Origin: a virus | Strand: one strand, 5' to 3' | Virus record (IMG/VR): IMGVR_UViG_3300009433_000007 | Length of the DNA stretch: 62,109 nucleotides | Part shown: one piece after another, positions 30,143 to 45,954 of the stretch | Position numbering within the stretch: position 1 is the first letter of the stretch | How the letters are laid out: every line of letters starts with the position of its first letter | Position numbers and translations under genes: made by a program | Notes under the pieces: generated by a model | Database searches by the model: none | Seen by the model: only the letters and a program-made list of their open reading frames with translations | What the model was told of the DNA's origin: nothing

Positions 30143-31141
30143 ATGTTTGAATATTTTTACAACGAAATATTGAGAAGAACCATCATATCTTTTGGTACAC
30201 TTTTTAACAATATTTCAATTAAAAAGTCTGATTCTGACGACGATGTGTTTAGTGTTATCAAGGTTCCTCTTGCATATGGTCCTACTCAAAAATTTCTTGC
30301 AAGATTAGAGCAGTCTCCAGATTTAAACAAACCCTTTGCAATCACTTTGCCAAGGATGTCTTTTGAGTTTACTGGATTGACATATGATCCCGCTAGAAAA
30401 GTAACAACAACTCAAACCTTTACAGTTAAAGATCCTGATGATGGGTCCGAGACAAAAAAATCTTACATGCCAGTTCCATATAATATGGCATTTGAGTTGA
30501 GCATTATGGCAAAATTAAATGACGATGCACTTCAAATCGTAGAACAAATTTTACCATATTTTCAACCAGCATATAATTTATCTGTAGAATTAGTAGAAGC
30601 ATTACAAGAAAAAAGAGATATTCCTGTAGTATTGGAAAATATTACAATGTCTGATGAATATGAGGGAGACTTTAGTTCTAGAAGAGTTCTTCTTTACACT
30701 TTAAGATTTACTGCAAAAACTTATATGTTTGGACCTTCTACCAAGGTTTCCAAAGATATCATCAAAAAGGCAACGGTCAGTTATCTTACAGGCAAAGATT
30801 CCTCAAGTGCATCTAGGGAGTATACTTACTCTGTTACACCTAGAGCAATCAAAAATTATACCGGAGACATTGAGACCACTCTTGCAGGAGATGTTACTGC
30901 TAAATCAATTTACATCGAAGTCGCTGATGCTAGTGGACTTGCTGCAGATACTTACATTAATATTGGTACTGAGGAACTTTATATCAAATCCATTAATGGC
31001 AATAAATTAACAGTTAGACGTGGACAAGATGATACAACAGCAGCAGTTCATGTTAATGGTGCAGATGTTAAGAAAATCACTCCTGCGGATAATGCACTTA
31101 TTGAATCTGGTGATGACTTTGGTTTTGATGGTGCATTCTGA
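30143..31141 (+). CDS. g15: Tail terminator / proximal sheath stabiliser gp15
   Basis: FYNEILRRTIISFGTLFNNI, VPLAYGPTQKFLARL, TLPRMSFE, PVPYN, QILPYFQP. Confidence 0.95.
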   Translation: MFEYFYNEILRRTIISFGTLFNNISIKKSDSDDDVFSVIKVPLAYGPTQKFLARLEQSPDLNKPFAITLPRMSFEFTGLTYDPARKVTTTQTFTVKDPDDGSETKKSYMPVPYNMAFELSIMAKLNDDALQIVEQILPYFQPAYNLSVELVEALQEKRDIPVVLENITMSDEYEGDFSSRRVLLYTLRFTAKTYMFGPSTKVSKDIIKKATVSYLTGKDSSSASREYTYSVTPRAIKNYTGDIETTLAGDVTAKSIYIEVADASGLAADTYINIGTEELYIKSINGNKLTVRRGQDDTTAAVHVNGADVKKITPADNALIESGDDFGFDGAF

Positions 31142-31575
31142 TGGTTATGACAAAAAACTTCAACAAACTCAACGAGACTTTCGACACTTCAGACTCGGAT
31201 GATGTTGTCCAACCAGAAGTAATCAGAGATAAAATTGAAAAGGTAAAAGAAGGTATTGATGATATCAAAAAAGATTATGAATATACTAGAGGTAATCTTT
31301 ACTCTATCATCGAGAAAGGACAAGAAGCATTAAATGGTGTTCTTGAACTTGCACAAGAAAGCGAAATGCCAAGGGCATATGAAGTTGCAGGTCAGTTAAT
31401 TAAAAACGTTGCTGATGCTACAGATAAATTATTAGATCTTCAAAAGAAACTTAAAGACGTAGAAGCAGAGGATAAGATCAAAGGACCATCAACCGTCAAC
31501 AATGCTTTATTTGTTGGATCTACTGCAGACTTGGCAAAAATGCTAAAAGATGGACTTAAAGAGGATCCTAAATAA
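31141..31575 (+). CDS. g16: Terminase small subunit gp16
   Basis: DYEYTRGNLYSIIEKGQEAL...PRAYEVAGQLIKNVAD...NNALFVGSTADL. Confidence 0.92.
   Translation: MVMTKNFNKLNETFDTSDSDDVVQPEVIRDKIEKVKEGIDDIKKDYEYTRGNLYSIIEKGQEALNGVLELAQESEMPRAYEVAGQLIKNVADATDKLLDLQKKLKDVEAEDKIKGPSTVNNALFVGSTADLAKMLKDGLKEDPK
31568..31574 (+). promoter_or_regulatory. Late promoter for the 716-aa gene
   Basis: CTAAATA overlapping the g16 stop. Confidence 0.55.
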
Positions 31576-31618: not shown

Positions 31619-33769
31619 ATGTCAAAGGATTTACCCTCATATGAGGATTTTGGTGGAGATGAAAGTCTCCCATCAATAGAAGATTATATTACAGAAGAGA
31701 ACGCAGAGGAACTCCCTTCTGTAGAAGATTTTATTGAAGAAGAAGTAATAAGCGAAGAAACTGTTACCATAGAAGATGCTGATGGGAATGCGTTTGCAGA
31801 AGTAAAAGATATTATCCCACCATTTCCCGAATTAATTCGTCTGATTAATGATGTTAGAAAAGACATCCCAGACATTCCAGAAGTCAAATATTATGATAGA
31901 GAACTTGAAGATCTTGCAGAACAGATTTCTCAACTTCCAGAAGTCAAATATTATGATAGAGAAGTAGAAGCAATATGTAGTCAGATTGATCTTGTAAGAG
32001 AACAGATTAAAGATCTTCCAGAAGTCAAATATTATGATGAACAGGTAAACTCTATTGAAGACAGAATTGATAGTCTTCAAACTGATGTAGTTAACTTGCC
32101 AGAAGTAAAATATTATGATGCGGAGATTGAGGCAATTTGTGGGGCTATTGATGAGGTAAAAGCATCGATCCCAAAATTCCCAAAATGGGTTAATGAAATA
32201 AATGAAGTACCAGATTTTTCTTGGATAGGAAAAACTTTTAGTGTCATTGATGATGATTTTGTAAAGATCAATGATGCCATTAATACATTACAAGAAAGTG
32301 TTGTTATTGAGTTAAAGAAGGCATCTGAAGAAAATGAAGTTAAACACTTTGAAAACCGAGTACAGTTTGGCACTGAAGTAAAAGATCTTGATACTAAACT
32401 AGAGGAAGAAAAAGGTAAGATTTGGAAGGAGTTGAGATCTTCATCTATGAAGATCTGGGAATATCATAAAACATTCAAAGATGATGATCGTAAACTCAAG
32501 AAACAAATTCTTGGGGAATATAATACTCTTAAAGACAATCTCGACAAGAGACTTAAAGAAGTTAATGAATCCAGCGTAAAAACTGATGAGTTACTTCTGA
32601 ACTATTTTACTGACTTAAAGGAACAGATTACCGGCATTCCAAAAGTCAAGTATTATGATGAAGATATTGATTATGTGAAGTCCGATATCAAAGGTCTAAG
32701 AAAGATTATTGAGGATATTAAGTCCGCCCAAAAACAACTGCAGGAAGAGCAAAAACTTTTAGCAGAAACTAATGTTCCTCTTGGAGAAGACCCCCCTAAT
32801 ACAAAAAATTCAGATCCCCTTACTCCTATTGATCAGAACTTTGTTACTCTAGATCAGTTACAACAACATTATAGAAGATTCGTAGAAAGGGTACAGTATC
32901 AACTTGGATCTATCGGTGGCGGTGGTGCAGGATTCATCAAAGATCTTGACGATGTAGACATTTCTGGATTGCAAGATGGATATATCCTAAAGTGGAATGA
33001 TGCTACTAATAAGTGGAAAGTTGAGGATGGTGGTGGTGTTGGAGCTGGTGGAACCTGGGCATCCAATACAGTTGGTATTCATACTACGAAAAACGTTGGT
33101 ATTGGAACCACAACTGCTAAGTCGGGTGTTGCACTATTCGTTGCAGGTGATATTGAAGCAACAAACGTCAACGTTGCTGGCACAATCACATATGAAGATG
33201 TAAAAAATGTTGATTCCCTTGGTATTGTTACCGCAAGAACTGGAATTGATGTTTTATCAGGCGGCATCAATGTAGTTGGTGTTTCTACGATTAGTACTGG
33301 TATTGGAACTGTCAATATTGGTGTAGGCAACACTACACTATTGGTTCAAGGTGATGCAAGAATAACAGGTATTCTTACGATTGGTCAGGGATCTATTACT
33401 TTAGATCCAACTGCTAGAAAAATTGAAGGTATTGATGAAATAATAATTGGTGCTGCAACTACTGTTAGAATTCATCAAGATTCTTCGGGAGAAATTGCTT
33501 TTAGTGATAGACAAGGAAAGCAAGCATCTGTTGGTATTGGTACAACAGTTTCCATCAATACCACAGGTATAATTACTGCAGCAACATTAAAAGCTTCTAC
33601 TGCATTCTATCCACCATTGTATACAACAACTGCCAGAGATGCTGGATCTTTTTCGCAGGGTGCTATTATCTTCAATACAACATCATTAAAACTTGAGTTT
33701 TATGATGGAACATCCTGGCAGTCACTACCTGGTATGACTCTTGGTCTTACTGTGGCATTAGACGGATAA
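31619..33769 (+). CDS. Segmented coiled-coil protein with a fibre-like C-terminus (716 aa)
   Basis: Three LPSxED[FY] motifs, five PxVKYYD repeats in heptad-rich sequence, then DLDDVD and VGIGTT repeats and a GAIIFNTT..LEFYDGTSW terminal motif. Confidence 0.75.
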   Translation: MSKDLPSYEDFGGDESLPSIEDYITEENAEELPSVEDFIEEEVISEETVTIEDADGNAFAEVKDIIPPFPELIRLINDVRKDIPDIPEVKYYDRELEDLAEQISQLPEVKYYDREVEAICSQIDLVREQIKDLPEVKYYDEQVNSIEDRIDSLQTDVVNLPEVKYYDAEIEAICGAIDEVKASIPKFPKWVNEINEVPDFSWIGKTFSVIDDDFVKINDAINTLQESVVIELKKASEENEVKHFENRVQFGTEVKDLDTKLEEEKGKIWKELRSSSMKIWEYHKTFKDDDRKLKKQILGEYNTLKDNLDKRLKEVNESSVKTDELLLNYFTDLKEQITGIPKVKYYDEDIDYVKSDIKGLRKIIEDIKSAQKQLQEEQKLLAETNVPLGEDPPNTKNSDPLTPIDQNFVTLDQLQQHYRRFVERVQYQLGSIGGGGAGFIKDLDDVDISGLQDGYILKWNDATNKWKVEDGGGVGAGGTWASNTVGIHTTKNVGIGTTTAKSGVALFVAGDIEATNVNVAGTITYEDVKNVDSLGIVTARTGIDVLSGGINVVGVSTISTGIGTVNIGVGNTTLLVQGDARITGILTIGQGSITLDPTARKIEGIDEIIIGAATTVRIHQDSSGEIAFSDRQGKQASVGIGTTVSINTTGIITAATLKASTAFYPPLYTTTARDAGSFSQGAIIFNTTSLKLEFYDGTSWQSLPGMTLGLTVALDG
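31877..32660 (+). repeat. Intragenic repeats encoding P[EK]VKYYD
   Basis: ccagaagtcaaatattatgat-like units start at 31877, 31937, 32018, 32099 and 32639. Confidence 0.85.
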
Positions 33770-33774
33770 TATCT

Positions 33775-33782
33775 TATAAATA
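33775..33782 (+). promoter_or_regulatory. Late promoter for the 619-aa gene and g17
   Basis: Exact TATAAATA 21 nt upstream of the ATG. Confidence 0.75.
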
Positions 33783-33803: not shown

Positions 33804-35663
33804 ATGAAGAAAAACGGTAAATGTCCTTCTGGACAATACTATTGCTACACCGATAAAAAGTGTAAACCAATCCCTCAGGGATTTAAGGCAGTAGGTCGTG
33901 CCGGATATCTCCGTAAGGAGAATGGTCATTCTGTAGATGATGATGAGAATAAGAATGGTAATGGTTCAAATGGCAATGGTAATGGTAATGGTGGAGGAGT
34001 AAGTGAATCGAAAAGTGGTGATTCTTCTCTGCGTGACTGGTTTGGCAAGAGTAAGTCTAGTGATGGCAAGCCTGGTTGGGTTCAACTGGGTGGGAAATAC
34101 GCTGGAAAACCTTGCGCCAAGCAACCAGGACAAACCACAAAACCAAAATGTGGTTCTAGTAAAATGAAACGTAATCTCTCCAAAGATGAGGAGCAAGCAG
34201 CATTTCGTAGAAAGAATGCAAAGGATCCAAATCCAGATAGAAAAGGGAAGGCAATTAACGTGAAGACTGAAGAAACTAAAAAAGACCATGAGTTTTCCAT
34301 GGCACGTTCTGAAATAAAAACTATTAAGAATGCTGCATCAAGATTAGAGAAAAAAATGGGAAAGAAAGGAGAAGGTGAACTAAAAGCATGGGTCCAATCA
34401 AAAATCACAAAAGCAGCAGACTATATCGATACTGCAGCAGATTATGTGACCAATGAAGAATTTGTAACGCTACCTTTACAGATAGAAATTCCTAACAATA
34501 TTAGAGATTTCAATCTAGGACTTATGTTCCGCGAAAGTCTGGATATCAATAGTGGAATGCTGTTCATCTTTAATGAAGTTGCAGAGCAGTCTTTCCATAT
34601 GACAGAAACAAGAATTCCTCTCGATATTGCTTTCATTAGAGAGGATGGAATAATCGAAAGCATTAAAGAATTGGAACCATTTGACGAGAATCCAGTACAC
34701 TCAGAAGGAGATGTATTGTGTGCATTAGAAGTAAACCGTGGATGGTTCGTAGAAAATAATGTAGAAGTAGGTGATGAGATTGACATTGATGAAGCAGCGG
34801 GAGAAAAAGACGCTTGCTATCATAAGGTCAAGTCACGTTACTCTGTATGGCCAAGTGCATATGCGTCAGGAGCACTAGTCAAATGCAGAAAAGTAGGTGC
34901 AAAGAACTGGGGGAATAAATCCAAGAAGGAAGAATTTGAACTTGATACATCGGGATCCGAACTCGATGAAAAGTGTTGGAAAGGTTATGAAAAGAAAGGC
35001 ATGAAGACCATGTTTGGGAAGAGATATCCAAACTGCGTCAAAAAAGAAGAAGTTGAGCAGATTGATGAAGTGAAAGGATGCAATCACACCTATAAAGGTG
35101 AAGAGTGTCCTATTCATGGAATGTCTGCATGTGATGGACCTAAAGGTGGTGATGGTGGCAAACCAGGTCCCGATAAGAATTATGTAAAACCAATGAGTGA
35201 AGCGGTTAGAATGCCATCTAGAACTGGCAATATTATTATGACATCTCTCAACTGGAGAGGTAGATATTATGTCCTTAGAATGTTCTTCCCTTCTACCAGA
35301 GTTCCTACTAGAGCAGAAGTACAGATTGAAGTAGACAAAGTTTATCCTGGCGCAAGAGTACAAAGTTACCAAACCGCCGATTATGTCCCAGGACAACCAT
35401 TGCTCCAAGTTGCAGAAGGAGCAGCATGGACAAAAAAATCAGGAAAAAATAAAGAAGGTGGACTCAACGAAAAAGGACGCAAGTCTTATGAAAAGGAAAA
35501 TCCAGGATCTGACCTTAAGGCACCAAGCAAGAAGGTTGGAAATCCCAGGAGGGCATCCTTCTGCGCTAGAATGAAAGGAATGAAAAAGAAATTGACTTCT
35601 GCTAAGACTGCAAGAGATCCAGATAGCAGAATCAATAAATCACTTAGAAAGTGGAATTGCTGA
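33804..35663 (+). CDS. Modular basic/Cys-paired protein with an internal DUF192 domain; candidate capsid-internal polyprotein
   Basis: DUF192 motif LGLMFR...GMLFIF...FHMTETRIPLDIAFI (residues ~220-330) flanked by short Lys-rich modules bounded by hydrophobic-X-E or EE sites. Confidence 0.7.
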   Translation: MKKNGKCPSGQYYCYTDKKCKPIPQGFKAVGRAGYLRKENGHSVDDDENKNGNGSNGNGNGNGGGVSESKSGDSSLRDWFGKSKSSDGKPGWVQLGGKYAGKPCAKQPGQTTKPKCGSSKMKRNLSKDEEQAAFRRKNAKDPNPDRKGKAINVKTEETKKDHEFSMARSEIKTIKNAASRLEKKMGKKGEGELKAWVQSKITKAADYIDTAADYVTNEEFVTLPLQIEIPNNIRDFNLGLMFRESLDINSGMLFIFNEVAEQSFHMTETRIPLDIAFIREDGIIESIKELEPFDENPVHSEGDVLCALEVNRGWFVENNVEVGDEIDIDEAAGEKDACYHKVKSRYSVWPSAYASGALVKCRKVGAKNWGNKSKKEEFELDTSGSELDEKCWKGYEKKGMKTMFGKRYPNCVKKEEVEQIDEVKGCNHTYKGEECPIHGMSACDGPKGGDGGKPGPDKNYVKPMSEAVRMPSRTGNIIMTSLNWRGRYYVLRMFFPSTRVPTRAEVQIEVDKVYPGARVQSYQTADYVPGQPLLQVAEGAAWTKKSGKNKEGGLNEKGRKSYEKENPGSDLKAPSKKVGNPRRASFCARMKGMKKKLTSAKTARDPDSRINKSLRKWNC

Positions 35664-35670
35664 GTAATTT

Positions 35671-37320
35671 ATGTCTGATAATGTATATCTTGGTAATCCC
35701 AATCTAAAAAAAGCAAATACTGCAATTGAATTTACTCAGGAGCAAATCTATGAGTTTATGCGATGCAAAGAAGATCCTGTATATTTTGCCAATAACTATA
35801 TAAAAATTGTTTCTTTGGATGAGGGTCTTACTCAGTTTCATCCATATCATTTCCAAGAAAAATTAATTAATAATTTTCATGAGAATAGATTTAACATCTG
35901 TAAGATGCCCCGTCAAACTGGCAAGAGTACTACAGTTGTTTCTTATCTTCTTCATTATGCGGTATTCAATGACTCTGTTAATATTGGCATCCTTGCTAAC
36001 AAAGCAGCAACTGCTAGAGAACTTTTAGGTAGATTACAAACTGCATATGAGAACTTGCCCAAATGGATGCAGCAGGGTATTATTGCATGGAACAAGGGAT
36101 CTCTGGAGTTAGAAAATGGCAGTAAGATATTGGCAGCTTCTACGTCTGCAAGTGCTGTCCGAGGCATGTCGTTTAACATTCTCTTCCTCGACGAATTCGC
36201 ATTCGTTCCAAACCATGTTGCAGACTCGTTCTTTGCATCTGTTTATCCTACTATTACTTCTGGTAAAAACACCAAAGTAATTATTGTATCTACTCCACAT
36301 GGTATGAATCACTTCTACCGTATGTGGCATGATGCCGAGAAAGGTAAGAGTGAATATATTCCCACTGATGTTCATTGGTCTGAAGTTCCTGGTAGGGATT
36401 CTAAGTGGAAAGAAACAACAATCTCAAACACTTCAGAAGCACAGTTCAAAGTTGAGTTTGAGTGTGAATTTTTAGGATCGGTCAATACTCTGATTGCTCC
36501 AAGTAAATTAAGAACTTTAATCTACGATAATCCAATACAAAGAAATGCTGGATTGGATGTGTATGAAAATCCAATACAGGATCATGATTATGTTATGACA
36601 GTTGACGTTGCTAGAGGAGTTGGAGAAGACTACTCAGCATTCGTAGTTGTAGATATCACAGAATTTCCCCATAAGATAGTTGCAAAATATAGGAACAATG
36701 ATATTAAACCAATGCTATTTCCAAATATCATTTACGAAATAGCAAAAAATTATAATAGTGCATATATCTTATGCGAAGTTAATGATATTGGTGATCAGGT
36801 TGCAAGTATTTTACAGTATGATCTTGAGTATCAAAATCTTCTCATGTGTTCCATGAGAGGTAGAGCAGGTCAAATTGTAGGACAGGGATTCTCTGGTAAG
36901 AAAACTCAATTGGGGGTTAAGATGTCCAAGACTGTAAAAAAAGTTGGATCACTTAATCTTAAGACTCTTATAGAAGAAGATAAAGTTATCTTTAATGATT
37001 ATGAGATTATTTCTGAACTAACAACATTCATATCTAAACACAATTCATTTGAAGCTGAGGAAGGGTGTAATGATGACTTGGCAATGTGTCTTGTCATTTA
37101 TGCCTGGTTAGTCCAGATGGATTACTTTAAGGAGTTGACTGATCAAGATGTTCGTAAGAGATTATATGAGGAACAGAAAAATCAAATAGAACAGGACATG
37201 GCACCATTTGGATTCTTAAATGATGGTTTAGATGATACAAGTTTTGTTGATGCTGAAGGAGATACTTGGTTTAAAGCAGACGAGTACGGTGATAGATCTT
37301 TTATGTGGGAATATCGTTAA
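35671..37320 (+). CDS. g17: Terminase large subunit gp17
   Basis: Walker A MPRQTGKST, Walker B LFLDEFAF, IVSTPHG coupling motif, nuclease TVDVARG and DDLAM. Confidence 0.97.
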   Translation: MSDNVYLGNPNLKKANTAIEFTQEQIYEFMRCKEDPVYFANNYIKIVSLDEGLTQFHPYHFQEKLINNFHENRFNICKMPRQTGKSTTVVSYLLHYAVFNDSVNIGILANKAATARELLGRLQTAYENLPKWMQQGIIAWNKGSLELENGSKILAASTSASAVRGMSFNILFLDEFAFVPNHVADSFFASVYPTITSGKNTKVIIVSTPHGMNHFYRMWHDAEKGKSEYIPTDVHWSEVPGRDSKWKETTISNTSEAQFKVEFECEFLGSVNTLIAPSKLRTLIYDNPIQRNAGLDVYENPIQDHDYVMTVDVARGVGEDYSAFVVVDITEFPHKIVAKYRNNDIKPMLFPNIIYEIAKNYNSAYILCEVNDIGDQVASILQYDLEYQNLLMCSMRGRAGQIVGQGFSGKKTQLGVKMSKTVKKVGSLNLKTLIEEDKVIFNDYEIISELTTFISKHNSFEAEEGCNDDLAMCLVIYAWLVQMDYFKELTDQDVRKRLYEEQKNQIEQDMAPFGFLNDGLDDTSFVDAEGDTWFKADEYGDRSFMWEYR

Positions 37321-42171: not shown

Positions 42172-42199
42172 AATCTAGTTGTTTACTATACAATTCCAA

Positions 42200-42400
42200 A
42201 TGGATGACCTTTTAGATATGATGATTGCTGACGAGTCACCATCTCAAATCAGTGATGCTCTCAAAGATATGCTATATACGAAATCGGCAGAAAGACTTGA
42301 TGCTTTCCGTCCGATAGTAGCAAATGGTGTGTTTGCCGGAGAGGATCCTATTGAAGTTGAAGTTGATGATGAGGAACTTGAGACCAGTGATGGCGTTTAA
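42200..42400 (+). CDS. Small acidic protein between g20 and g21 (prohead-core gp67/gp68 position)
   Basis: 66 aa from ATG42200; strongly acidic; synteny only. Confidence 0.7.
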   Translation: MDDLLDMMIADESPSQISDALKDMLYTKSAERLDAFRPIVANGVFAGEDPIEVEVDDEELETSDGV

Positions 42401-42408
42401 TATAAATA
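42401..42408 (+). promoter_or_regulatory. Late promoter
   Basis: Exact TATAAATA. Confidence 0.7.
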
Positions 42409-42431
42409 AATTATACTGAAAGTTAGGAAAG

Positions 42432-42689
42432 ATGAAAGTCTTAGGAGATGCCACTGCGTTGGCAACAGGCACAACCAAATTTAAAACCTCAACAGCAGTT
42501 TATATTGGCAATACTGACAATACAAATGATTATGATGTGACTGTTCGGAATGCCGCTGATGATGCAGACCTAGGATCTATAACAGTTCCCGCTGCAGGTT
42601 CTCTCGTTATCCACATAGATATCGGTCAGGGTCTGAGAGGTAATGCTGCGTTAAAAGGAACTAAAGTTAATGTAGACGCACGCACTTAA
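42432..42689 (+). CDS. Small beta-rich hypothetical late protein (85 aa)
   Basis: ORF with own late promoter and AGGA RBS. Confidence 0.7.
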   Translation: MKVLGDATALATGTTKFKTSTAVYIGNTDNTNDYDVTVRNAADDADLGSITVPAAGSLVIHIDIGQGLRGNAALKGTKVNVDART

Positions 42690-42716: not shown

Positions 42717-43367
42717 ATGAAACTAATCAGAGAAGAAATAGAATCAGTAGAGTTTCTTGTCGAATCTAAAAACGGCAAAAAATCTATGTATATTGAAGGA
42801 GTGTTCCTTCAAGGAAACATCAAAAACCGTAATGGTCGTATGTATCCGATGGAAACACTTCGTCGTGAAGTGGGTCGCTATAATGAAGCGCATGTTAATG
42901 CTGGTAGAGCACTTGGAGAACTTGGACATCCCGATGGACCCACTGTCAATCTAGATAGAGTTTCTCATAAAATTGTATCACTTAGAGAAAGTGGATCCAA
43001 CTTTGTTGGAAAAGCAAAGATTCTCAGCACTCCTATGGGTATGATTGCACAGTCACTTATCGGTGAGGGTGTAAAACTCGGTGTTTCTTCTCGTGGTATT
43101 GGTTCATTAAAGCAGACCCGTGAAGGTGTTAATATCGTCGGTGATGATTTTATGTTAGCAACTGCTGCTGATATCGTTGCTGATCCTTCTGCACCAGATG
43201 CTTTTGTTGAAGGTATTATGGAAGGTAAGGATTGGGTATGGGATGGAGGTATTCTTCGTGAGAAGTTTGCTGAGAAGACATACAAGCAAATCAATACACT
43301 TGTAGACCAAAAACAATTAGATGAGAATAAGTTAAACTTATTCAATGACTTCTTATCTAATCTTTAA
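42717..43367 (+). CDS. g21: Prohead protease gp21
   Basis: YIEGVFLQGNIKNRNGRMYP, ALGELGHP, GVSSRGIGS, DIVADPSAPDAFV. Confidence 0.97.
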   Translation: MKLIREEIESVEFLVESKNGKKSMYIEGVFLQGNIKNRNGRMYPMETLRREVGRYNEAHVNAGRALGELGHPDGPTVNLDRVSHKIVSLRESGSNFVGKAKILSTPMGMIAQSLIGEGVKLGVSSRGIGSLKQTREGVNIVGDDFMLATAADIVADPSAPDAFVEGIMEGKDWVWDGGILREKFAEKTYKQINTLVDQKQLDENKLNLFNDFLSNL

Positions 43368-44559: not shown

Positions 44560-45954
44560 ATGTTCCAATCCGAACAGTTGCAGGAAAAGTGGGCACCCCT
44601 TCTAAACGCTGAAGGATGCGATAAGATTCAAGATTCTCATCGTAGAGCTGTTACCGCTGTCCTGCTCGAAAACCAAGAAAAATTTATGCGTGAGCAGTCT
44701 GCCTTTGATCAAGGCGGAATGCTTACCGAGCAACCAACGAACCAAGTAGGCAACGGTGGATTCACCGGTTCCTCTGCTGCTGCAGGTCCTACTGCTGGTT
44801 TCGACCCCGTTCTGATCTCCTTGATCAGACGCTCAATGCCTAACCTGGTCGCATATGACCTCGCAGGCGTTCAACCCATGAGCGGACCTACTGGACTCAT
44901 CTTCGCGATGCGCTCCCGTAAGACCGATCAGTCTGGAAGCGAGACCTTCTTCGATGAAGTCGATTCCGCGTTCTCTGGACAACCCGCAGGACTCAACAAC
45001 GCAAACGGATTCTCCGACGCTGCTGCTGGTCTTGGTACTACTTCTCAGTCTGGTACTAATCCTGGTGTCCTGAACCCAACTGGTTCTGCATCTTCGACCG
45101 GATATAACGTCGGTCAGGGTATGCGTACCGACACTGCTGAAGCACTTGATGGAACTGGTGCATCAGCATTCAACCAGATGGCATTCTCGATCGAGAAAGT
45201 CACTGTAACCGCTAAGTCCAGAGCTCTGAAAGCAGAGTACTCCTTGGAACTGGCACAAGACCTTAAGGCAATCCACGGTCTTAACGCTGAAGCAGAACTT
45301 GCTAACATCCTCTCTACTGAAATCCTTGCGGAAATCAACAGAGAAGTCATCAGAACCATCTATAAGGTTGCTGAGCAAGGTGCTGCTACCAACGTTGCAA
45401 CCCAAGGTGAGTTTGACCTTGACATCGACTCAAACGGACGTTGGTCTGTTGAGAAGTTCAAAGGTCTTCTGTTCCAAATCGAGAGAGATGCAAACCGCAT
45501 CGCCCAAAGAACTCGTAGAGGAAAGGGCAACATCATCATGTGTTCTGCTGACGTTGCGTCTGCACTGACCATGGCTGGTGTGCTCGACTACACCCCTGCA
45601 CTCAACGCTAACCTTAACGTTGATGACACGGGTAACACCTTCGCTGGTGTTCTGCAAGGTAAGTATCGTGTATATATCGATCCTTATTCTGCAAACTCTG
45701 CTGCTAACCAGTACTACGTTGTTGGTTATAAGGGTTCTTCACCTTATGATGCAGGTCTATTCTATTGCCCTTACGTTCCCCTCCAAATGGTTCGTGCTGT
45801 TGGAGAGAACTCCTTCCAGCCCAAAATTGGCTTCAAGACTCGTTATGGTCTTGTTTCCAACCCATTCGCAGAAGGAACCACTCAGGGACTTGGACGCCTC
45901 CGCGTCAACAGCAACCGCTACTATCAGCGCGTTACTGTCAAGAACCTCATGTGA
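44560..45954 (+). CDS. g23: Major capsid protein gp23
   Basis: KWAPLL, FDPVLISLIRRSMPNL, GVQPMSGPTGLIFAMR, AKSRALKAEYSLELAQDLKAIHGL, FQPKIGFKTRYG. Confidence 0.99.
   Translation: MFQSEQLQEKWAPLLNAEGCDKIQDSHRRAVTAVLLENQEKFMREQSAFDQGGMLTEQPTNQVGNGGFTGSSAAAGPTAGFDPVLISLIRRSMPNLVAYDLAGVQPMSGPTGLIFAMRSRKTDQSGSETFFDEVDSAFSGQPAGLNNANGFSDAAAGLGTTSQSGTNPGVLNPTGSASSTGYNVGQGMRTDTAEALDGTGASAFNQMAFSIEKVTVTAKSRALKAEYSLELAQDLKAIHGLNAEAELANILSTEILAEINREVIRTIYKVAEQGAATNVATQGEFDLDIDSNGRWSVEKFKGLLFQIERDANRIAQRTRRGKGNIIMCSADVASALTMAGVLDYTPALNANLNVDDTGNTFAGVLQGKYRVYIDPYSANSAANQYYVVGYKGSSPYDAGLFYCPYVPLQMVRAVGENSFQPKIGFKTRYGLVSNPFAEGTTQGLGRLRVNSNRYYQRVTVKNLM

Follow-up and report, generated by a model that had tools for sequence, protein, structure and literature searches.

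What does the 619-amino-acid (aa) protein encoded between gp16 (31141-31575) and gp17 (35671-37320) in IMG/VR record IMGVR_UViG_3300009433_000007 do for the virus? The window, by which we mean the whole stretch of 62,109 nucleotides analysed here, is part of a T4-like cyanomyovirus (Kyanoviridae), and its nearest records are the Synechococcus phages Bellamy and S-SM2, with ~80% nucleotide identity across part of the region. T4-like cyanophages are among the most abundant marine viruses, and the family of this protein is annotated only as 'hypothetical' or 'DUF6321'. The original prediction, made from the letters of the window alone, was a string of capsid-cargo modules separated by prohead-protease sites. 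The open reading frame (ORF) is real, with the coordinates and length given there, and its place between gp16 and gp17 is a hypervariable region. We put at about 55% the probability that its product is a late polyprotein of head cargo resembling internal proteins, and that the prohead protease gp21 processes it.

By full-length similarity and gp16-gp17 position, the protein is a member of T4-GC119/phrog_727; the whole protein matches phrog_727 with an E-value of 2.4e-159, and the family counts 19,410 cluster representatives (50% identity) at E<=1e-3. It is 58-63% identical to proteins of Bellamy, S-SM2 and SynMITS9220M01, and the homologues of Bellamy, S-SM1, S-SCSM1 and Syn9 share its placement. 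Virion association of the family has already been published, for homologues in S-SM1 and S-SCSM1. Sullivan et al. (2010; PMC3037559 Table S8) enter T4-GC119, the annotation of the S-SM1 orthologue SSM1_115 (as T4-GC 119), as 'Structural protein' and record 13 peptides from S-SM1 virions, and the S-SCSM1 orthologue ORF29, which likewise begins with the module that we call M1, is a 'virion protein' by mass spectrometry (MS; PMC9602691). Among 15 cyanophages the gene measures between 276 and 2985 nt (PMC3037559 Table S8). Every PHROG match of the 619-aa protein is of unknown function, and in the searchable literature we found nobody proposing that the T4-GC119/phrog_727/DUF6321 protein is processed, targeted or built of modules; our search also turned up no paper that deals with DUF6321 or ties cyanophages to capsid-targeting sequences.

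The protein divides into nine modules, M1 to M9 (Table 1). Pfam names two of them, DUF192 (PF02643, residues 226-328, 1.8e-24, 86.1 bits vs a cut-off of 27) and DUF6321 (PF19846, residues 547-617, 7.9e-22, 78.1 bits vs a cut-off of 28.5, with the full profile, 1-72, covered), and no other domain at E<=1. The Cys-pair motifs quoted in the original prediction lie where it placed them, and among 56 relatives there is little or no variation in the pairs C104/C116, C338/C361, C391/C411 and C587/C619. The basic character described for most modules is likewise present: charges run from +4 to +17, DUF192 (-19) being the sole exception. A full-length AlphaFold2 (AF2) model is poor, with a predicted local distance difference test score (pLDDT) of 49, the outcome that a beads-on-a-string protein should give; ordered in it are DUF192, M8, the C-terminal half of DUF6321 and the long M3 helix, and each proposed site falls within a low-confidence linker. 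DUF192 has Foldseek matches to 3m7a and 3pjy (E 4e-6, 36% identity). The core of M8 exceeds a pLDDT of 90 when modelled together with M9; a wide PDB search gave it no match above Z 5.1, with no significant structural neighbour and no fold assigned, and BFVD held family members only. A protein-atlas search returned DUF5872 and DUF5661 leads and nothing else; the nearest named look-alikes of M2 in the atlas, which serve as a lead only, are stand-alone DUF5872-type viral proteins of 82-88 aa. A phrog_38880 match spans residues 330-375, in the region of M5. The spacing of C426, H428, C435, H438 and C443 in M7 resembles a zinc knuckle, and elsewhere in their length the S-SCSM1 and S-SM1 proteins contain a C-x2-C ... 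C module of another type (RYCPKC/RYCRLC...CAYG). We rejected the name 'membrane protein (UPF0127)' given by the Joint Genome Institute: it is only the COG label of DUF192, and on reading the translation, with no transmembrane prediction run, we saw no long hydrophobic stretch.

Independent shuffling of the modules between phages had been anticipated, and it does occur. When profiles built for the nine modules were scanned over 270, later 384, family proteins, 106 architectures appeared among the 270, with the order itself permuted (M5-M6 and M6-M5; M3 before or after M2), and cultured phages displayed a like variety. Some of the metagenomic proteins are fragments, though truncation cannot explain a permuted order.

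Amid this shuffling, a residue pattern recurs at the joints. A conserved gp21-type motif, hydrophobic-x-Glu (positions P3 to P1), marks most module starts, namely those of five modules. It is strictest before M8, where 97% of unique junctions are hydrophobic at P3, 98% have Glu and 0% Asp at P1, and 88% have Ala at P1', with P2 and P4-P10 variable and eight different modules found upstream. M9, M6 and M7 have the M8-type pattern at 59-74% of their unique junctions; before M2 it is shifted one residue further upstream, before M5 it often lies eight residues upstream, and the M3 and DUF192 junctions show no hydrophobic-x-Glu motif among relatives. The background of the motif is 0.0215 per residue overall and 0.038 in linkers, where the Glu:Asp ratio is 1.7:1. 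Counting only junctions whose upstream flanks share <=2 of 8 residues, we found hydrophobic-x-Glu before M8 in 30/30 cases, M2 in 27/35, M6 in 28/54, M9 in 26/50 and M7 in 7/18, an enrichment over the linker rate of 0.038 with p from 1e-6 to 1e-43; P1 at these junctions was Glu 135 times and Asp 5 times. Such a pattern, with Glu far above Asp and a Glu-Ala bond, matches the established specificity of T4 gp21, which cuts after Glu in L/I-x-E, is blocked by Asp at P1 and was first found to act at a Glu-Ala bond (PMC9026906).

The ten boundary tripeptides named in the original prediction all occur where it located them, and six of them (VSE68, IDE330, LDE389, IDE422, MSE466 and VAE538) fit hydrophobic-x-Glu. 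The remaining four, TEE157, NEE219, KEE377 and KEE416, do not fit the motif and were rejected as sites; M3 is flanked by a protease motif at neither end (TEE157, NEE219). Nine separate pieces would be too many: six cuts would leave about seven products, including a 262-aa piece of M2, M3 and DUF192. Among 120 close homologues, Glu is conserved or invariant at five of the six fitting sites (the exception is IDE422) and at LNE556, a seventh hydrophobic-x-Glu motif inside DUF6321, and P3 is hydrophobic wherever it can be aligned, even where linkers vary (I-x-E330 in 120/120, [LIM]-x-E389 in 119/120, E466-A467 in 120/120). Five further hydrophobic-x-Glu motifs lie inside the folded DUF192 domain. 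Judged from the sequences, the number of sites in the 619-aa protein is unremarkable; their placement and conservation are remarkable. The motif around LNE556 (L554-N555-E556, window 35463-35471), GGLNE/KGR (here and below a slash follows the Glu of a known or candidate cut), is kept in 297/299 T4-like family copies, and Ala takes the place of E556 (GGLNA or GGLTA) in all five stand-alone DUF6321 proteins from phages outside the T4-like group. E556 may offer gp21 an additional site, removing 18 residues, or may have nothing to do with processing.

A candidate enzyme is encoded in the window. The gene proposed to be gp21 does encode a Peptidase_S77 protein (PF03420 at 3.7e-34); it is intact, and its product shares 39% identity with T4 gp21, the two aligning at their His and Ser motifs (GELxHP, GVSSRG). 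The protein gp23 had been said to carry the same type of site, and LTE57/QP in the window indeed aligns with LTE65/A of T4 gp23.

Further evidence comes from the starts of relatives and neighbouring genes, some of which resemble the T4 capsid-targeting sequence, MKTYQEFIAE (PMC8442874). P0036, a homologue 79% identical to the 619-aa protein, begins MKSFRDFISE/ANKSGD, a decapeptide tag in the very slot that M1 occupies in the window protein; P0254, P0176, P0178, P0130 and P0238 have starts of this kind, and the starts seen in the family also include MKTFADFINE/SKSGD, MKEFNQFVKE/E, MIKFKSFTEE/T and MKTFKNFME/A. In S-SZBM1, ORF192 consists of MKTFKQYITE/A, a small Cys module and DUF6321, and its neighbour ORF191 of MKSFKSFLSE/S followed by an M8-like domain. 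M8 is a stand-alone gene with an N-terminal tag in other cyanophages as well; S-SCSM1 ORF30 (MKTFKQFMSE/S) matches residues 471-521 of the 619-aa protein (blastp E 1e-6), and Bellamy gp122 is a tagged basic Cys-pair protein of 51 aa; like ORF191 of S-SZBM1, both are encoded next to the family locus. Across 80 related IMG/VR loci, 32 strict-tag ORFs lie on the strand of the family gene and 0 on the other, against ~1 expected; tagged neighbouring genes occur in 27 of these loci, directly upstream in 12/56 and directly downstream in 15/62.

Tags also survive within longer proteins. A 144-aa protein of three related loci (L039:1112-1546, L048:259-690, L085:1737-2168), encoded directly upstream of the family gene, ends in an in-frame fusion to the 51-aa Cys-pair protein, whose tag persists inside as RKTFEQFQE/; this shows how such polyproteins can arise. 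Relic tags also precede M6 in relatives (e.g. SFQDFQE/K), the S-SM1 and Syn9 proteins among them. The same 144-aa protein starts with the T4-like tag MKNFNQFLNE and continues with QPTNNVGNGGYT, almost identical to the N-terminus predicted for mature gp23 of the window (LTE57/QPTNQVGNGGFT); it may be a packaged mimic of the gp23 N-terminal arm.

Outside T4-like phages, P-SCSP1q, HTVC022P, HTVC115P, Pag-Yong1 and MaMV-DL01 have DUF6321 solely as a stand-alone protein of 72-87 aa. In the T7-like phages P-SCSP1q and HTVC022P its gene sits among portal, scaffold and capsid genes, and the start of the stand-alone form, MAKSPAW, corresponds to the GAAW that follows VAE538, the predicted N-terminus of the processed product. 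The cryo-electron microscopy paper on P-SCSP1u contains nothing on the stand-alone protein. Adjoining the stand-alone gene in the head gene cluster is a tiny, very basic conserved protein (..KKGLYANIHAKRKRI.AGSGEKMRK.GAKG..), encoded by HTVC022P gp31 (L007:2846-2992) and P-SCSP1q gp19 (L004:3659-3835) in T7-like marine phages of different hosts; together with DUF6321 it may form a pair of small DNA-associated head proteins.

We infer for the window protein entry into the head, cutting at the listed sites and roles for the resulting pieces. In the proposed mechanism, the precursor would be expressed late and built into the prohead core, where the gp21-type protease would cut after the Glu of hydrophobic-x-Glu in disordered linkers, at VSE68, IDE330, LDE389, IDE422, MSE466 and VAE538 and perhaps at LNE556. 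About seven products would be released: M1, the M2-M3-DUF192 piece, M5, M6, M7, M8 and DUF6321. These would be retained in the head alongside the DNA and probably exit together with it when the phage infects. Small basic products are expected from M2 (+12), M5 (+7), M6 (+6) and DUF6321 (+17), with DUF192 as the acidic exception, and by analogy with the T4 internal proteins the most likely roles would be early action in the host or, for the basic modules, neutralisation of DNA charge. An alternative entry signal may reside in M1, a thought suggested by the detection of the M1-type S-SCSM1 protein in virions, or entry may rely on binding of the basic modules to the acidic scaffold.

More tentatively, and with odds clearly against it as a whole, we suggest a 'plug-in' head-cargo system in which tagged small genes cluster between gp16 and gp17 and repeatedly fuse in frame, the downstream tag surviving as an internal gp21 site. 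From one late gene, every capsid could then be filled with an exchangeable assortment of proteins that is delivered along with the DNA and consists of basic Cys-pair peptides, DUF192, DUF6321 and, in other phages, enzymes. Some might act against host defences, and the whole would amount to an abundant, undescribed class of injected proteins in the ocean.

Several observations weigh against processing of packaged cargo. The 619-aa protein starts MKKNGKCPSG..., without an N-terminal targeting tag, and neither a strict nor a relaxed pattern finds a tagged ORF in the window. Four of the ten sites first proposed fail the motif. The cleavage rule is borrowed from the specificity of T4 gp21, and Val and Met are frequent at P3 of the junctions, where T4 prefers Leu and Ile. 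The junction counts, 135 Glu to 5 Asp among them, are not fully independent of shared ancestry. Evidence of cleavage, at the level of peptides or gels, was not found for any family member; the supplements of both proteome papers give counts or presence only, without peptide positions. In Table S8 of PMC3037559, T4-GC119 is missing from one comparison phage and not detected ('-') in the other, which must be Syn9 because Syn9 has gp114; the Syn9 homologue was thus not found in Syn9 virions, which could equally reflect small Lys-rich fragments that escape detection. Finally, the modules work without a prohead protease in other phages, and the motif could serve another purpose.

One alternative fares best, although we regard it as unlikely: the protein would be packaged but remain whole, or be trimmed at only one or two sites, the motifs being features of linkers or domain caps or docking sites for the scaffold. 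The lack of direct cleavage data suits it, as does T4 Alt, which is cut only at its ends. So do the automatic ESM Atlas cluster name, 'Virion protein family protein', and the record annotations, which name whole proteins, although such labels are silent on processing. Caps specific to a fold would not, however, be shared by five unrelated modules with so strict a preference for Glu over Asp (135:5). Nor does this alternative account for stand-alone forms that begin exactly at the predicted cut, or for tag relics at internal junctions.

Less probable still is an external component of the virion (neck, whisker, fibre-associated or decoration), with disulfide-stabilised modules facing the seawater. 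The gene follows a fibre-like gene of 716 aa, conserved Cys pairs would suit an oxidising exterior, and virion MS is blind to inside and outside. The T4-type tags on homologues and neighbouring single-module genes nevertheless point to the head interior, as does the company of portal, scaffold and capsid genes kept by DUF6321 in T7-like phages, and most modules are predicted to be disordered and highly basic.

There is also a slim chance of a non-structural late protein, DNA-binding or host-directed, that contaminates virion preparations. A basic, disordered protein would stick to DNA or particles, and Syn9 virions yielded no gp114 peptides; against this stand independent detection in CsCl-purified virions of two phages, the conserved position inside the structural gene block and the targeting tags on relatives. 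It is highly improbable that the sites merely reflect how often three residues of this kind coincide in a protein rich in Glu; this reading is already disfavoured despite a short motif, its background of 0.02-0.04 per residue and the four misfitting tripeptides, since the motif is conserved at junctions across non-homologous flanks (p 1e-6 to 1e-43) and is invariant in 120 close relatives even where linkers vary.

If the protein is processed head cargo, the closest parallel is provided by the internal proteins of T4. Shared with these are small, basic, non-conserved head proteins, a hypervariable locus with a gp21 homologue nearby, and relatives and neighbouring single-module genes that start with near-copies of the tag ending in hydrophobic-x-Glu. 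The T4 internal proteins are, however, encoded by separate genes and each cut once, whereas here up to nine modules are fused with internal sites, and they are tagged, whereas the 619-aa protein starts with a Cys-rich module instead. Compared feature by feature with T4-type internal proteins, it lacks the N-terminal tag and has, at the sequence level, the boundary motif, together with an encoded Peptidase_S77 and small basic products as predicted; we saw no sequence similarity to T4 IPI-III. Processing at several sites is known from T4 gp22, gp67 and gp68, which gp21 cuts at several L/I-x-E sites into multiple fragments in the prohead (PMC9026906), but these belong to the scaffold, are acidic and lose most of their fragments from the head, in contrast to the mostly basic Cys-paired modules described here, which are independent proteins elsewhere. 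The inner-body and ejection proteins of phiKZ, 201phi2-1 and SPN3US are also internal to the head and cut after Glu (S/A-x-E), at several sites each, by a gp21-like protease that has diverged; they come from another phage lineage and other protein families, mainly lose propeptides and form no chains of shuffled mini-modules. The 619-aa protein is a sequence relative of neither the T4 internal, the T4 core nor the phiKZ-type proteins, and the novelty here lies in a polyprotein that unites cargo modules found on their own elsewhere and is jointed by relic tags.

Should this reading hold, the cyanophage counterpart of the T4 internal-protein system would be identified, together with a novel strategy for encoding cargo, the fusion of tagged genes into a polyprotein. 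The tag plus hydrophobic-x-Glu would offer a simple rule to predict capsid-carried proteins that enter Prochlorococcus and Synechococcus, and would make the first minutes of infection, and perhaps anti-defence functions, directly testable. It would also provide a function-level handle on DUF192, DUF6321, DUF5872-like and DUF5661 proteins.

Table 1. Positions in the window of the 619-aa ORF, its modules and associated features.
Feature	Position	Strand	Description
TATAAATA T4-type late-promoter motif	33775..33782	+	21 nt 5' of the ATG; read in the sequence, motif match only
ORF (P0001)	33804..35663	+	619 aa; T4-GC119/phrog_727 member; proposed gp21-processed head-cargo polyprotein
M1, aa 1-68	33804..34007	+	Cys-rich beta-hairpin motif (C7, C14, C20) and Gly-Asn repeat; ends VSE68
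M2, aa 69-157	34008..34274	+	basic module, +12; C104/C116
M3, aa 158-219	34275..34460	+	predicted long helix; in only ~40% of close relatives
M4, aa 220-330	34461..34793	+	DUF192 domain, acidic (-19); ends IDE330
M5, aa 331-389	34794..34970	+	basic (+7) Cys-pair module, C338/C361; core ...WPSAYASGALVKC...; acidic tail ending LDE389
M6, aa 390-422	34971..35069	+	CWKGY...NCVKK module, +6; C391/C411; ends IDE422
M7, aa 423-466	35070..35201	+	Cys/His-rich (C426, H428, C435, H438, C443); ends MSE466
M8, aa 467-538	35202..35417	+	compact beta-beta-alpha-beta domain, confident prediction; ends VAE538
M9, aa 539-619	35418..35660	+	DUF6321, very basic (+17), helical; C587/C619
gp21 prohead protease (Peptidase_S77)	42717..43367	+	presumed processing enzyme
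gp23 L55-T56-E57 maturation site	44722..44730	+	aligns with T4 gp23 LTE65/A

The surroundings of the ORF are those of a structural gene block, with gp14, gp15, gp16 and the 716-aa fibre-like gene on the 5' side and gp17, gp18, gp19, gp20, gp21, gp22 and gp23 on the 3' side. The 716-aa gene (window 31619-33769), between gp16 and the ORF, matches tail-fibre PHROGs (phrog_30742, 2e-63); S-SCSM1 and Bellamy both have an equivalent gene with the annotation tail fibre, and the product of the S-SCSM1 one is a virion protein by MS. Two small ORFs of 73 and 85 aa (window 42179-42689) lie between the portal gene and gp21, in the place of T4 gp67/gp68. Neither has a Pfam match, and the 73-aa product is acidic, with the C-terminal end ...EVEVDDEELETSDGV.

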